Assembly (NCBI GenBank): GCA_963747695.1
Contig: CAVVFV010000010.1
Coordinates: 164,451-228,450 of the forward strand
Length of the DNA stretch: 64,000 nt
Direction of reading: 5' to 3'
From: Candidatus Falkowbacteria bacterium
Lineage (GTDB): Bacteria > Patescibacteriota > Patescibacteriia > Patescibacteriales > WJLG01
The translations under genes and the position numbers were made by a program. Each line of letters begins with the position of its first letter. The first letter of the stretch is position 1. Below are positions 28,105 through 57,724 of the stretch, one piece after another. Under the pieces are notes generated by a model. It worked only from the letters and a program-made list of their open reading frames with translations. It was not told the DNA's origin and made no database searches.

Positions 28105-28138
28105 GCGCGCGTCCATTCCTCTGGACGCGCTTTTTTTA
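28105..28138 (+). terminator. rho-independent terminator
   Basis: agcgcgcgtccattcctctggacgcgc followed by tttttttag. Confidence 0.65.
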
Positions 28139-28192
28139 GCTTCTTCGAACCATTTTTTCAACAAAAAAAAGCAACCCAAGGGGGTTGCAGTT

Positions 28193-53196: not shown

Positions 53197-53355
53197 TATA
53201 TCATAATTAGTTAATTAGTTAATTAGCCGATCAGTTGATTGAAAAATAAGTCCGAAAACTAATTAGCCAATCGACCAATCGGCTAATTTCCAATATTGAC
53301 TTCCCACTGATAAAAGGCCAATATATAAGTAGTAAATAACTAATTATAAAAAAAT

Positions 53356-54907: not shown

Positions 54908-54982
54908 CGCGGGTATCGTATAGCGGTTATTATGCCAGTTTTCCAAACTGGTCATAGGGGTTCGACTCCCCTTACCCGCTCC
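54908..54982 (+). tRNA. tRNA-Gly (anticodon TCC), CCA encoded
   Basis: GCGGGTATCGTATAGCGGTTATTATGCCAGTTTTCCAAACTGGTCATAGGGGTTCGACTCCCCTTACCCGCTCCA. Acceptor GCGGGTA/TACCCGC, anticodon stem CCAGT/ACTGG with loop TTTCCAA. Confidence 0.85.
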
Positions 54983-56469
54983 AAAGAGAAACAAGACCTA
55001 TTTTCCAGAAATTTTTCACGCGCTTCGCGAAGCGAAGCGTAAGGTTTAATGGGCACAAATTGAATTTTTTTATCTTTCAAAAACAGGTTCGAGCCGGAAA
55101 TTTTTACGGCTGAAGATTTTTTATCCAAAAGTGATGATGAAATGGCGTTTTCGCCTATATTTACTGCGTCTTTTATCCATTCCCGCATCGGTTCGAGCCA
55201 AACTATAGACCCTCTCTTAAAATCGACGATTTTCTCCTCCAGCGACTTCTTGCGAGAGAGAAGACTCGCCTTCTCCGTGAGGTATGCCTCGCGCTCTATG
55301 TCTTGGTCTAAATATGCGGTAAGAAGGCGCTGGAGCTTCGCCTCGATAGCTATAACTTCTTCTCTCATCTCATGACTTACAGTTGCTGATAATTGGGCGG
55401 CCTCTTTTGCATCTTTGTCGGTCATTTTCAAGAGTTCTGCCGCCCAATCGGAAGGCATAGCATATTCTTTTAGGACATCAGTCAATTGCGCGATCAATTC
55501 CTTGTCTTTCATGTACGGTTGTGAGCAAGCCCCTTTCTTTTTGGTGCAGTGATAGTAAGTATATTCATGGGTCTTGCCGGATACCTGCCTTTTTATCTTA
55601 TGCTCAGCCGTAATGGAACAGCCGCACTCGCCGCACCTAAATAGCCCGCATAGCGGCTGAGGTTCGTTTTTAATCTTGTCGTGCGGTTTGCCGCGATCGG
55701 CAATCACAGCCTGCACGCGGTCAAATAATTTTTTGGAAATGATTGACTCGTGTGTGCCTTCGTAGACTTCGCCGGCATATTGGAACAGGCCGCAATAAAA
55801 AATGTCGGATAATATGCGCGATATTCTGTCCCGCTTGAATATGCTTCCGGTGTCGGCGCGCACGCCTTTCTCCGCGAAGAACGCGGAGATATCTTCAAGC
55901 CGCGAGTTGCCCTTGGCGTAAAGTTCAAAGGCGGCAATCACCACCTTCGCCGTTTTTCTCTCCACGATAATGCGTTTCGTCCGAACGTCGTTCAAGTATC
56001 CGAGCGGGGCGCGCGAAGGATATTCGCCTCTCTTAACTTTTTCGTGTAGTCCGCGTTTAGTGTTAGTGCTCAAGTCGATGATGAACTGGTTAGCCATGCC
56101 AAACTCCATGCTCATAACCAGCGTGTTGTCGGTCGAGCGATAGCTCCGGTCATGGGTTTGGATATGTTGGATAGTTCCCCGCTGTAAAAACCAGCTGATT
56201 TGTCCGCCGTCGATCGGATTGCGGGCGAGACGATCAAGTTTCCAGCAAACAATGCCTTGCGCCTCGCCTTTTTCAAGGCGCGAAAGCATCTCGCCAAATA
56301 CAGGGCGTCCAGGTCTCTTGGCTGATTGTTTTTCGATAAACTCCTCAACGATATTCAACCCTTCGGTCTTGGCCAGCGCCCGCAAGACGGCCAGCTGATC
56401 GTCAATAGAACGGACTTGCTTGTCTTCAACGTCAGTCGATTTGCGGGCGTAGAGGAAATAATTTGGCAT
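54952..56469 (-). CDS. large serine recombinase (resolvase/invertase N-terminal domain + recombinase domain + zinc-ribbon + coiled-coil)
   Basis: ...FLYARKSTDVEDKQVRSIDDQLAVLRAL (catalytic Ser region), ...GIVCWKLDRLARN, recombinase-domain motifs, CGECGCSITAEHK...YYHCTKK zinc ribbon. C-terminal 58 aa are encoded by IR-L and the last 9 aa by the tRNA-Gly 3' end. Confidence 0.85.
   Translation of the reverse strand: MPNYFLYARKSTDVEDKQVRSIDDQLAVLRALAKTEGLNIVEEFIEKQSAKRPGRPVFGEMLSRLEKGEAQGIVCWKLDRLARNPIDGGQISWFLQRGTIQHIQTHDRSYRSTDNTLVMSMEFGMANQFIIDLSTNTKRGLHEKVKRGEYPSRAPLGYLNDVRTKRIIVERKTAKVVIAAFELYAKGNSRLEDISAFFAEKGVRADTGSIFKRDRISRILSDIFYCGLFQYAGEVYEGTHESIISKKLFDRVQAVIADRGKPHDKIKNEPQPLCGLFRCGECGCSITAEHKIKRQVSGKTHEYTYYHCTKKKGACSQPYMKDKELIAQLTDVLKEYAMPSDWAAELLKMTDKDAKEAAQLSATVSHEMREEVIAIEAKLQRLLTAYLDQDIEREAYLTEKASLLSRKKSLEEKIVDFKRGSIVWLEPMREWIKDAVNIGENAISSSLLDKKSSAVKISGSNLFLKDKKIQFVPIKPYASLREAREKFLENRSCFSLERVRGVEPL
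54978..55152. repeat. IR-L: 175-bp perfect inverted repeat (partner at 56921-57094). Starts within the last 5 nt of tRNA-Gly.
   Basis: Verified by reverse-complementing block by block. Every 10-mer matched. Confidence 0.95.
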
Positions 56470-56571
56470 AAATTTTATATTTCAATATTTTTTAGAAGTG
56501 TTATAATATCTACACAACGATGACACATTTCCATTATAACGCTATTATGAAAAATAGTAAATAACTACTAT

Positions 56572-56778
56572 ATGCCAAAGGGGTCAATTATTTCCGGGAA
56601 TATAAAAAAATACCGAGCCAAACTCGGTATTTCTCAAGACAAGCTGTCGAAAATGTCCGGTGTCGATTACAACACGATCATTAAAATTGAATCGGGCGTG
56701 ACTTACAACCCGCGGGTTGAAACATTGAAGAATATTGCCGATGTTTTTAAAGTCGGCATTGATGATTTGATGAGATAA
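56572..56778 (+). CDS. XRE-family helix-turn-helix transcriptional regulator
   Basis: ...IKKYRAKLGISQDKLSKMSGVDYNTIIKIESGVTYNPRVETLKNIADVFKVGIDDL. Divergent from the recombinase gene. Confidence 0.8.
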   Translation: MPKGSIISGNIKKYRAKLGISQDKLSKMSGVDYNTIIKIESGVTYNPRVETLKNIADVFKVGIDDLMR

Positions 56779-56920
56779 AAATATGCAGACGGATAAAGAA
56801 ACAAATAAAATTTATAAAGTCTTTGAAATAATTTTGGCGGTTGGGAGTTCGCCGTTTTCTCAACTCGGCGAAGATGCATAATGCGCGCACGGGATGGGCG
56901 GGGCAAGCATTATACAATTT

Positions 56921-57094
56921 GAAAACGCCATTTCATCATCACTTTTGGATAAAAAATCTTCAGCCGTAAAAATTTCCGGCTCGAACCTGTTTTTGAAAGA
57001 TAAAAAAATTCAATTTGTGCCCATTAAACCTTACGCTTCGCTTCGCGAAGCGCGTGAAAAATTTCTGGAAAATAGGTCTTGTTTCTCTTTGGAG
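56921..57094. repeat. IR-R: inverted partner of IR-L. Encodes an alternative recombinase C-terminus on the plus strand.
   Basis: Tracker ORF 56894..57139 reproduces ENAISSSLLDKKSSAVKISGSNLFLKDKKIQFVPIKPYASLREAREKFLENRSCFSLE then continues TLRNEIRTIYTQIS. Confidence 0.95.
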
Positions 57095-57257
57095 ACGCTA
57101 AGAAACGAAATCCGAACAATTTATACCCAAATTTCTTGACGCTTTCGCCACCTGTTCAACCCCTTATCTACCCCGTTTGTTAGAACTCATCTTGGCCAAA
57201 ACGGCGGCGATTTACCGTTTCCTCTGGCAACTATTGAAGCTAACCAATAATAAAGAA

Positions 57258-57285
57258 AAAAACAGGCTCCTACCTGTTTTTTCTT
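57258..57285 (+). terminator. hairpin with T-run (aaaaaaacaggctcctacctgtttttt)
   Basis: Seen in sequence ~120 nt right of IR-R. Confidence 0.5.
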
Positions 57286-57724
57286 TTATTGATTGGGGTT
57301 GGGAAAAGTTTAAATCAAATTATCGAAAAAAGTGGGCGTTATGCTTTTTTTTGTTTTCCCAAAAACAAAAGCCTCATCGATGGTGGAAACAAGAATTGAC
57401 AAATACCAATAGGTCTTCTTTCAAGAAACTGCGGACGAACTTTGTTCGCCGGCAATTTCTTGAAAGAAAGTTGCCGCCTGGCGATAGAAAAGAAATTCCT
57501 CGCTACTGTCGGGCGGACAAATTTGCCCTTAAGACTCCTCACCGGGAAACCGCGGCTCCCCGAAATATCGGAATCAATAGAAAAATAATAGTCAAAATCT
57601 TGTTAGTTATCAATGAAGCTTTCTGATTATATTGTAGCAAAAAATTGCCGGTTAATAAATACCAAACCTGACACTAACTTAAGCCAAAATATCCGGCTTG
57701 CCAAAATAAAATTTTGCCCCTATA

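Follow-up and report, generated by a model that had tools for sequence, protein, structure and literature searches.

The 64,000-nt stretch of Candidatus Falkowbacteria contig CAVVFV010000010.1 analysed here (the window) carries, directly beside a tRNA-Gly gene, a candidate integrative element composed of a large serine recombinase (LSR) gene and a divergent XRE-family regulator gene, both lying between the arms of a long inverted repeat (Table 1). Open reading frames (ORFs) and Pfam domains agree with the initial annotation in placing a 505-aa LSR and a divergent XRE gene between the repeats. The LSR matches PF00239 Resolvase (residues 5-149, 2e-21), PF07508 Recombinase (residues 172-259, 1e-12) and PF13408 Zn_ribbon_recom (residues 272-333, 1e-8), and its sequence matches in the Protein Data Bank are A118 integrase, over the C-terminal domain, and SPbeta recombinase; no coiled-coil insert aligned in this sequence comparison. 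By domain content the protein is a large serine integrase, and a conservative reaction with a 2-nt staggered crossover would fit the junctions described below, with their 2-5-nt shared core. Databases hold more than 5600 homologues, an exact-protein look-up finds no identical protein on record, and a protein search finds no relatives in viral contigs.

An inverted-repeat search reports arms at 54971-55152 and 56921-57102 (182 nt, 98%, 1768 nt between the arms), and self-BLAST delimits within them a perfect core of 174 nt (54979-55152 vs 56921-57094, 100%). The repeat is thus perfect, as first described, and one base shorter than the 175 bp then given, which had set the start of the proximal arm (IR-L) at 54978, one base too far out (g 54978 faces a 57095). 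A repeat of this kind is far beyond chance, since the remaining inverted repeats of the 6-kb region are at most 31 nt long and imperfect. The perfect repeat begins in the last 5 nt of tRNA-Gly (CTCCA) and IR-L encodes 58 codons at the 3' end of the LSR gene, both as initially noted. The LSR ORF contains no stop codon inside the element, and its final residues therefore come from whatever adjoins the junction; in the window these are RVRGVEPL, read from the antisense strand of the tRNA, with a stop codon (54952-54954) inside the T-arm. The earlier claim of an alternative tail on the distal arm (IR-R) also stands, in that the ORF at 56894-57139 (81 aa) repeats the 58 residues and then continues as TLRNEIRTIYTQIS; this ORF has no Pfam match and is better explained as a copy of the arm.

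A search for the same tRNA-Gly locus with and without the element, proposed at the outset, was made among close host relatives found via the neighbouring LytR protein, and it returned both states (relatives are cited by L number). L085 is an empty site, with Lgt, tRNA-Gly, terminator and LytR and nothing inserted, in which ...ACCCGCTCA is joined to CATAAAAC and the tRNA ends in GCTCA; L083 is empty of LSR, the terminator following directly after tRNA-Gly (GCTCCA, then AAAATAAAC). The filled junctions are those of the window (GCTCC, then AAAGAGAAAC) and of the nearest sister element, L087 (LSR 89% identical in amino acids), which sits in an L085-type tRNA (GCTCA, then AAAGAGAAAC). Empty and filled versions all break at a CTC(C/A) core. 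A right junction is found in L082, where ...TTCTTAGCGCCTCA is joined to TAATAAAAG (core-side form GCGCCTCA, then TAATAAAAG); here a sequence that we call psi, 87% identical to window 57092-57145 and in the opposite orientation, runs into the terminator found after the tRNA in L083. From these junctions the attachment sites can be read as attB = tRNA-core-terminator, attL = tRNA-core-arm, attR = psi-core-terminator and, by deduction, attP = psi-core-arm, with the T-arm and acceptor strand (3' part) of the window tRNA-Gly as the likely bacterial half-site of attL. Six further loci (L006, L025, L035, L043, L059 and L075) permit attL, or an internal psi-core-arm, and an outer psi-core-host junction to be read side by side, and the sites within each of them diverge after a shared 2-5-nt core; a serine recombinase needs a core of such shortness. 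A right junction with host sequence after the target is present in L082 and in these six loci, and the window itself has no recognisable attR.

Table 1. Coordinates of the features at the tRNA-Gly/LSR locus (window numbering; a point marks a feature without strand).
Feature	Position	Strand	Basis or remark
Remnant 5' half of original tRNA-Gly, broken in the anticodon	54813-54846	+	BLAST to relatives
tRNA-Gly(TCC)	54909-54983	+	ARAGORN; Rfam RF00005 tRNA, 59.5 bits
Large serine recombinase (LSR), 505 aa	54952-56469	-	Pfam Resolvase + Recombinase + Zn_ribbon_recom
Junction core CTCCA, presumed to hold the 2-nt crossover	54979-54983	.	Empty, filled and right-junction comparisons
Proximal arm IR-L, predicted element half of attL; codes LSR residues 440-497	54979-55152	.	
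GC-rich palindrome CGCTTCGCGAAGCG	55020-55035	+	Mirror copy 57038-57053
T-arm-like motif GGTTCGAGCC in LSR codons GSNL	55086-55095	+	Read directly; mirror copy 56978-56987
Putative divergent promoter region LSR/XRE	56470-56571	.	Five promoter-like sites, both strands; consensus matches only
XRE-family helix-turn-helix regulator, 68 aa, divergent from LSR	56572-56778	+	Pfam HTH_3, 2e-15
Promoter-like site ATGAAA-16-TATAAT	56909-56936	-	Inner edge of distal arm, directed into LSR/XRE segment; 10/12 matches
Distal arm IR-R, predicted arm half of second, inverted attP	56921-57094	.	
psi, tRNA 3'-end mimic, predicted other half of inverted attP	57095-57139	-	Element sequence X continues to ~57170
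Native terminator, probable displaced bacterial B' side	57249-57295	+	Local alignment to L085 post-tRNA terminator; terminator-like hairpin 57257-57282

We consider it likely that the locus is an integrated minimal member (LSR plus XRE, ~2.2 kb) of a very large Patescibacteria family of tRNA-targeting LSR integrative elements, in which the far repeat would be a mirrored attP. The family was surveyed in 80 LSR loci from species-representative genomes, nearly all of them Patescibacteria metagenome-assembled genomes (MAGs), at 45-68% protein identity. An inverted repeat of the LSR 3' end is present in 56 of the 80 loci, its other arm lying 1.5-3.5 kb upstream; the median length in these 56 is 141 nt at 98.8% identity, and 19 repeats are perfect. 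A convergent tRNA abuts the LSR 3' end in 55 of the 74 loci in which that end lies inside the contig; these tRNAs represent 15 amino-acid types, and in relatives the repeat overlaps the last 3-6 nt of the tRNA. Four chromosome-level records are among the repeat-bearing loci (OY970216.1, OY970175.1, OY970354.1 and OY970382.1, with titles reading "chromosome: 1"), which we take to be long-read assemblies, and two of the surveyed loci (L060 and L070) come from a single MAG, MGKV01. In minimal relatives the two arms enclose nothing but the LSR (~1.75-1.9 kb in total), simple forms lack the distal arm (L001, L092, L094 and L119), and five loci place the LSR module between two inverted attP with no tRNA (L058, L067, L077, L093 and L095), the repeat of L095 measuring 288 nt at 100% identity and standing at both contig ends. 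The divergent XRE partner recurs in L081, L087, L092, L093, L095 and L096. This architecture has apparently not been described before, as far as we could find: full-text searches of the literature, subscription journals lying outside their coverage, turned up no description.

Two further observations concern the contigs of the survey. In L077 (1458-11729) a 1.6-kb LSR segment stands between the arms of a perfect inverted repeat of 4352 nt, which contains psi sites together with a 238-nt internal repeat; this giant palindrome could be real or could be a misassembly. Nine NODE_-named SPAdes contigs (L007, L012, L032, L044, L045, L051, L053, L056 and L068) start 49-52 nt outside the distal arm; such starts would fit if an assembly graph with k = 55 broke at another repeat, namely the X-psi pair described next, and they imply a double-repeat layout commoner than the resolved loci show.

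The second attP is best understood from psi, a conserved ~45-nt sequence with a T-arm-like GGTTCGA whose GTTCG core is 4 nt more distant from the junction than that of a real tRNA. About 45 loci carry the motif tCAGgAATTTttGnTAAAATAGGTTCGAGC-N17-core outside the distal arm, whatever the target tRNA, and IR-R plus psi would form a complete, intact second attP, inverted and inside the integrated element. Several relatives have a second repeat pair, X-psi (77-420 nt, up to 100% identity), which begins exactly at the core beside the distal arm and brackets cargo. The cargo comprises an N6/N4 methylase, an MvaI/BcnI endonuclease and GmrSD in L006/L081 and, elsewhere in the family, a HaeII restriction-modification (R-M) system with an OLD-family ATPase, PLD-SNF2 helicases and a TrwB-like ATPase. 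In fuller relatives the layout is tRNA-core-[arm, LSR module, arm']-core-[psi'X', defence cargo, X psi]-core-terminator, which is the expected product of integrating a circle with two inverted attP and explains both adjacent repeat pairs. An unbiased psi census of metagenome contigs with one exact pattern lists at least 128 sites, in 107 of which no LSR C-terminal coding sequence follows the junction, a count made with a tblastn screen that missed some short arms; in many of these 107 a terminator or a convergent tRNA comes next, which is what an attR should show. Among viral contigs the pattern has four matches, all in LSR-less cassettes of another subfamily whose boundaries are only partly parsed. 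A position weight matrix match to psi at window 28127-28170 was read and dismissed as chance.

Three IMG/VR contigs (L089, L090 and L091) hold 5.2-kb cassettes with an HpaII R-M system, a Gabija-like OLD ATPase and a UvrD helicase beside tRNA-Gly(GCC) and no LSR; these are bracketed by inverted psi-containing repeats of 87-100 nt, with a near-palindromic 52 nt between the tRNA and the inner psi. The cassettes may be orphan cargo modules of the same system.

On its far side the window copy differs from such cargo-bearing relatives. Beyond psi and ~30 nt of X (to ~57170) come 75 nt of unassigned sequence and then the native terminator, whose alignment to the L085 post-tRNA terminator scores 30, against a mean of ~15 and a maximum of 25 in a single shuffle control made with psi as query over the same region. 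No outer psi or attR is found before the terminator at 57249, where the best local match scores 15, the shuffle mean, and BLAST shows no second copy; nor does BLAST find a second copy of the element within the 64-kb window. Homology to the host restarts at 57362 relative to L082 and L083 and at 57671 relative to L085. The window copy has lost, or never had, cargo and right junction; its LSR ORF is intact and its arms are identical. In close relatives the interval between tRNA-Gly and LytR, which corresponds to window 54984-57361, is a variable island that contains S-adenosylmethionine methyltransferases and a shikimate-kinase-like gene in L083, adds ParB_N-like and unknown genes in L082, and holds nothing in L085. 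A 149-aa ORF at 57177-57626 has no Pfam match. Two short near-perfect intergenic hairpins, at 57416-57468 upstream of LytR and at 53221-53288 between PGI and Lgt (arms of 25 nt and 31 nt), are apparently unrelated to the element as far as seen.

The partial 5' copy of tRNA-Gly that the initial annotation had placed upstream of the tRNA is likewise present, 62 nt away. Its identity is 97% to the corresponding half of the uninterrupted tRNA-Gly at the empty site L085 and 86% to the neighbouring tRNA, and it is followed by 62 nt of GC-rich sequence and then by the second, complete tRNA-Gly variant. The same arrangement occurs in L083, which has no LSR. The remnant is older than the LSR element and lies outside it, and the arrangement resembles what an earlier integration or replacement of a different kind would have left behind at the tRNA.

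We then consider the two LSR tails, for which the 120 best LSR homologues were classified, partly by eye. The tRNA-antisense type (..GIEP..) accounts for 58 of the 120, and psi-derived tails (..LYxxxRTYFxxN) for at least 7 by a strict pattern and ~13 by eye; the second tail of the window, ..EIRTIY.., is of the psi type. The last 8-14 LSR codons are the part exchanged between tail types. What had been described as an alternative C-terminus is just the tail that is read when an LSR gene abuts psi. Genes in this position make up ~11% of homologues and all lie on contigs of 8.7 kb or less, none of which closes into a circle, and none of the five psi-tailed contigs examined has a tRNA at its distal arm. 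In L111 (1916-6967) the cargo is bracketed by a psi pair whose sequence is not that of the psi at the LSR 3' end. This suggests integration into the right junction of a resident element and hence that psi can replace a tRNA as target, and some psi-tailed genes may accordingly be tandem integrants.

Comparison of the two arms argues that the distal copy of the 58 LSR codons is under no coding selection. In 10 loci (L010, L011, L015, L017, L022, L026, L030, L032, L038 and L056) a conserved insertion of 10 nt (TTCTGAATTT-like) within GGC^TCGAACC is all that sets the distal arm apart from the proximal one, and it ends the reading frame as ..FGF*. The insertion corresponds to one helical turn and the arms are nearly identical on either side of it, a pattern that implies selection for a difference between the two copies at this single point. 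Arm differences in 16 loci fall evenly on the three codon positions (32/32/32). These two results, the stop-making insertion and the lack of codon-position bias, do not support the proposed inversion, which would preserve a full-length ORF and swap its C-terminus, as the conserved function.

The arms carry conserved signals at the DNA level. RNAalifold applied to 24 arms yields a GC-rich hairpin ~50-75 nt from the core, seen in arms of L003-L076, with compensatory double changes in 6/6 pairs, and in many members the stem is followed by a T-run in the direction from the junction to the inside, the strand antisense to LSR. The hairpin is plausibly a one-way terminator within coding sequence, replacing the displaced native tRNA terminator and shielding the LSR gene. 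The arm ends exactly at a GGTTCGAGCC-type motif in ~19 minimal relatives, and the 10-nt insertion of the 10 relatives sits exactly there. In LSR-only minimal elements (L003, L033, L044-L051, L053, L057, L062-L065, L068, L075 and L076) the inner boundary of the arm always falls between (GGC) and TCGAACC; on the distal side the inner flank goes on with what looks like a canonical T-loop (GGTTCGA, then ATCCC...) and then with the conserved GTATTTGCTTTGCCC, which lies upstream of where the LSR gene starts. At the inner edge of the window distal arm, the -10 hexamer of the promoter-like site 56909-56936 is preceded by TG on direct reading, where the scan output says no TG, and relatives have a conserved motif GGGCAA(A)GCA..TATAC at the equivalent place; from consensus and position this is a putative promoter. 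A sigma-70 promoter in psi with TTGnnA as -35 was rejected, its 21-nt spacing being too long; the extended -10-like boxes that remain are speculation.

The arms also evolve in concert. Arm identity within an element is 96-100%, and that of orthologous arms 75-96%, in all ten pairs of related elements compared; between the window and L087 the arms are 96% identical and the rest of the LSR gene 84%. Gene conversion starting at the core, possibly through repair of aborted LSR cleavage, may keep the arms nearly identical; it would fit an outer boundary of the repeat that is fixed at the core and an inner boundary that varies from 112 to 190 nt.

Several other explanations of the repeat must be weighed. 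In one, which the initial annotation had offered as the first of two alternatives, a self-contained switch, the 1.77-kb LSR/XRE segment flips between the arms via LSR or RecA, changing the LSR tail and the orientation to tRNA read-through and so turning the integrase on and off. The perfect repeats are long enough for homologous recombination, their concerted evolution shows that the arms interact, many short-read contigs break at the arms or ~50 nt outside them, and the tRNA is convergent with LSR in the observed orientation, so that read-through is antisense. Free flipping would place a tRNA beside the distal arm in about half of the loci, yet the LSR faces the tRNA in 55 loci and no clearly flipped orientation was seen (55 vs 0-1), the five "fragment + tRNA" cases being inspected by hand. 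The ambiguous case is L073 (5512-5850), with a complete tRNA-Val, two tandem partial tRNA 3' halves and then the distal arm, LSR being directed away; it is the only candidate for a flipped or accreted arrangement, and suggests that psi derives from captured tRNA 3' halves. L158 has a remnant arm without LSR beside a tRNA. Against flipping also stand the missing tRNA in the five psi-tailed contigs, the truncation of LSR at ..FGF* that inversion would cause in 10 loci, the lack of coding constraint on the distal copy, and the nature of the two sites, which are of attL and attP type, a pair that serine integrases are not known to recombine; contig breaks are expected at any repeat. A switch is thereby not upheld as a conserved function, and we regard this reading of the window as unlikely, though rare inversion may occur. 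A transposon resembling an insertion sequence (IS), here a 2.1-kb element (54979-57094) with the 174-bp arms as its terminal inverted repeats that inserts itself whole at tRNA 3' ends, would account for the minimal relatives with LSR alone between two arms, for the same core at both arm ends and for some short contigs bounded by repeats (L052, L080 and L095). We judge it very improbable: psi and X outside the distal arm are conserved with the element and not with the target, cargo and the true right junction lie beyond the distal arm, L082 joins psi and not the arm to the host terminator, and the simple forms have no distal arm at all. Excision of the arm-to-arm unit by LSR was considered and rejected, since a serine recombinase could invert such a unit but would not be able to excise it because the distal core is reverse-complemented and not palindromic. 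The suggestion of a tRNA-targeting serine-integrase element with long terminal repeats consequently needs division: integration at the tRNA 3' end stands on the empty, filled and right-junction relatives, and the repeats are not both termini, the distal arm being internal.

The mirrored attP might instead handle cargo, recombining with the right junction (psi-core-terminator) to invert or exchange the defence cassette, the window site then being an orphan after cargo loss. Inverted X-psi repeats that start exactly at the core by the distal arm do bracket cargo in L006, L025, L035, L043, L059, L075 and L104, psi-bounded defence cassettes without LSR stand beside tRNA-Gly(GCC) in L089-L091, and swapping two psi halves would regenerate identical sites. 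We nonetheless hold such a role to be improbable for the window: serine integrases do not canonically pair attP with attR, the mirrored attP is retained, with no cargo bracket, in the window and in many minimal relatives, and no pair of loci with both cargo orientations turned up, no systematic search for one having been made. A chimeric or fold-back join that produced a false inverted duplication is next to inconceivable. The contig is metagenome-assembled and misassembly can create perfect repeats, but the 80 loci are independent, drawn from many studies and assemblers, and 56 of them share the architecture, the four chromosome-level records included; the arms have diverged to 81-99% in many loci; 174 nt is also, to our knowledge, not a standard assembler k-mer length. 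The possibility of an assembly artefact, which the initial annotation had allowed for, is effectively refuted by this conservation. Finally, we find it doubtful, if conceivable, that these elements are a new serine-integrase kind with two mirror-image attP, in which LSR could integrate, excise and invert without a directionality factor, flipping its own module, the cargo module or both; such an element would be a bacterial analogue of the FLP/FRT flip-flop of the yeast 2-micron plasmid, fused to a tRNA-targeting integrase, and the 174-bp repeat would then be its working site and the flipped state rare or transient. On such a reading the products of integration would be equivalent in type to the substrates because psi imitates the tRNA target. 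A folded single-stranded attP in the style of CTX phage or integron attC was rejected, as a serine recombinase cuts both strands and would sever the chromosome if it acted on a hairpin stem.

We return to the integrated element with a mirrored attP as the likely explanation. In our model LSR would insert a circular element at the 3' end of the tRNA, with crossover in the 2-5-nt core at the discriminator/CCA position, by recombining attP (psi-core-arm) with attB (tRNA-core-terminator). The zinc-ribbon domain would read the T-arm motif GGTTCGA both in the tRNA, where its spacing is of attB type, and in psi, where it lies 4 nt further out at attP-type spacing, and integration would leave the tRNA intact, swap the LSR tail and bring along a terminator. 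The arms would serve at the DNA level, as an integrase binding half-site and as a terminator that works in one direction and insulates the LSR gene. For the mirrored copy the most likely role would be that of insulator or operator on the promoter side of the LSR gene, with the further role, where relatives bear cargo, of a partner site for cargo rearrangement. That the mirrored attP is a switch of the LSR C-terminus is unlikely.

A number of points weigh against this model. Excision, integration and inversion are all deduced from comparisons of sequences, mostly of MAGs, and the operator, insulator and cargo-rearrangement roles from position and consensus motifs. The window copy has no recognisable attR and may be immobile or unable to excise, so that its model rests on relatives. 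Integration always uses the attP adjoining the LSR 3' end despite a second intact attP, and the model gives no reason for this. Psi-tailed LSR genes could be free forms or tandem integrants, and gene conversion that holds the arms at 99-100% would be expected to yield some crossovers as well, i.e., inversions.

The elements resemble the large serine integrases of phages and integrative and conjugative elements (phiC31, Bxb1, Listeria A118 and SPbeta SprA) in their resolvase catalytic, recombinase and zinc-ribbon domains, in an apparently conservative attP x attB reaction with a very short core, in an integrase gene beside the attachment site and in the use of one DNA motif at different spacing in phage-type and bacterial-type half-sites (a 4-nt offset here); a spacing rule of this kind between the two half-site types was reportedly worked out for A118. 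They differ in a general targeting of tRNA 3' ends, across 15 amino-acid types, which serine integrases do not usually show, in an attP core inside the last integrase codons, in one attP half that mimics the T-arm, in carrying a second, inverted attP and, in minimal members, in having no candidate directionality factor. Serine transposons (the IS607 family, TnpX of Tn4451 and TndX of Tn5397) move a small element via a circular intermediate with a serine recombinase alone; unlike the present family they have neither long inverted repeats nor tRNA-end specificity, and here the distal repeat is internal and the true right end appears to be psi. With the SSV1-type integrase, a tyrosine recombinase whose gene contains attP and is split in two by integration, the family shares an attP that overlaps the integrase ORF and an ORF altered by integration, whereas here only the last 8-14 codons are swapped.

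Other likenesses are to islands and switches of different origin. Tyrosine-integrase tRNA islands (P4-like elements; tycheposons) also have an integrase beside a tRNA 3' end, carry a tRNA 3' copy or mimic and keep the tRNA intact, and share modular cargo (here defence genes) and tandem accretion (here L073 and L111). In the present family, by contrast, the sites share only 2-5 nt and no long block of identity, the tRNA mimic is degenerate and shifted by 4 nt, and the mirrored attP has no counterpart in those islands. Among Prochlorococcus tycheposons and cryptic elements, tyrosine recombinases are found in 910/937 (10.1101/2020.12.28.424599). The likeness to the Hin, Gin, Cin and Pin switches, where a serine recombinase gene lies in or beside a segment bounded by inverted repeats, is one of layout only. 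In Salmonella, hin is inside the invertible H segment, and Hin-type invertases are small serine recombinases that need an enhancer and Fis, use 26-34 bp repeats and have both orientations coexisting; here, in contrast, the enzyme is a large serine integrase, the repeats measure 112-190 nt, the orientation is fixed in 55/55 clear cases and the distal copy is often frame-broken. The yeast 2-micron plasmid places its recombinase region between 599-bp near-perfect inverted repeats, each with a target site, and its FLP is a tyrosine recombinase whose inversion serves copy-number amplification. L095, L058, L067 and L093, with the LSR module between two inverted attP, resemble this FLP/FRT arrangement in layout only; FLP acts on a eukaryotic plasmid, and the minimal members here have no replication genes.

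Serine integrases are the main tools for large-DNA genome insertion, and their natural site pairs are hard to find; this family gives dozens of integrases with putative attB, attL, attR and attP readable from genomes. A shared universal T-arm motif combined with specificity for at least 15 tRNAs makes the re-targeting of specificity testable, and recombination may be reversible without a directionality factor. The elements appear to be a major vehicle for defence systems (R-M, Gabija-like, GmrSD and PLD-SNF2) in Patescibacteria, whose mobile elements are poorly known, and they pose the problem of why an integrative element would keep a homogenised mirror-image attachment site beside its own integrase gene.

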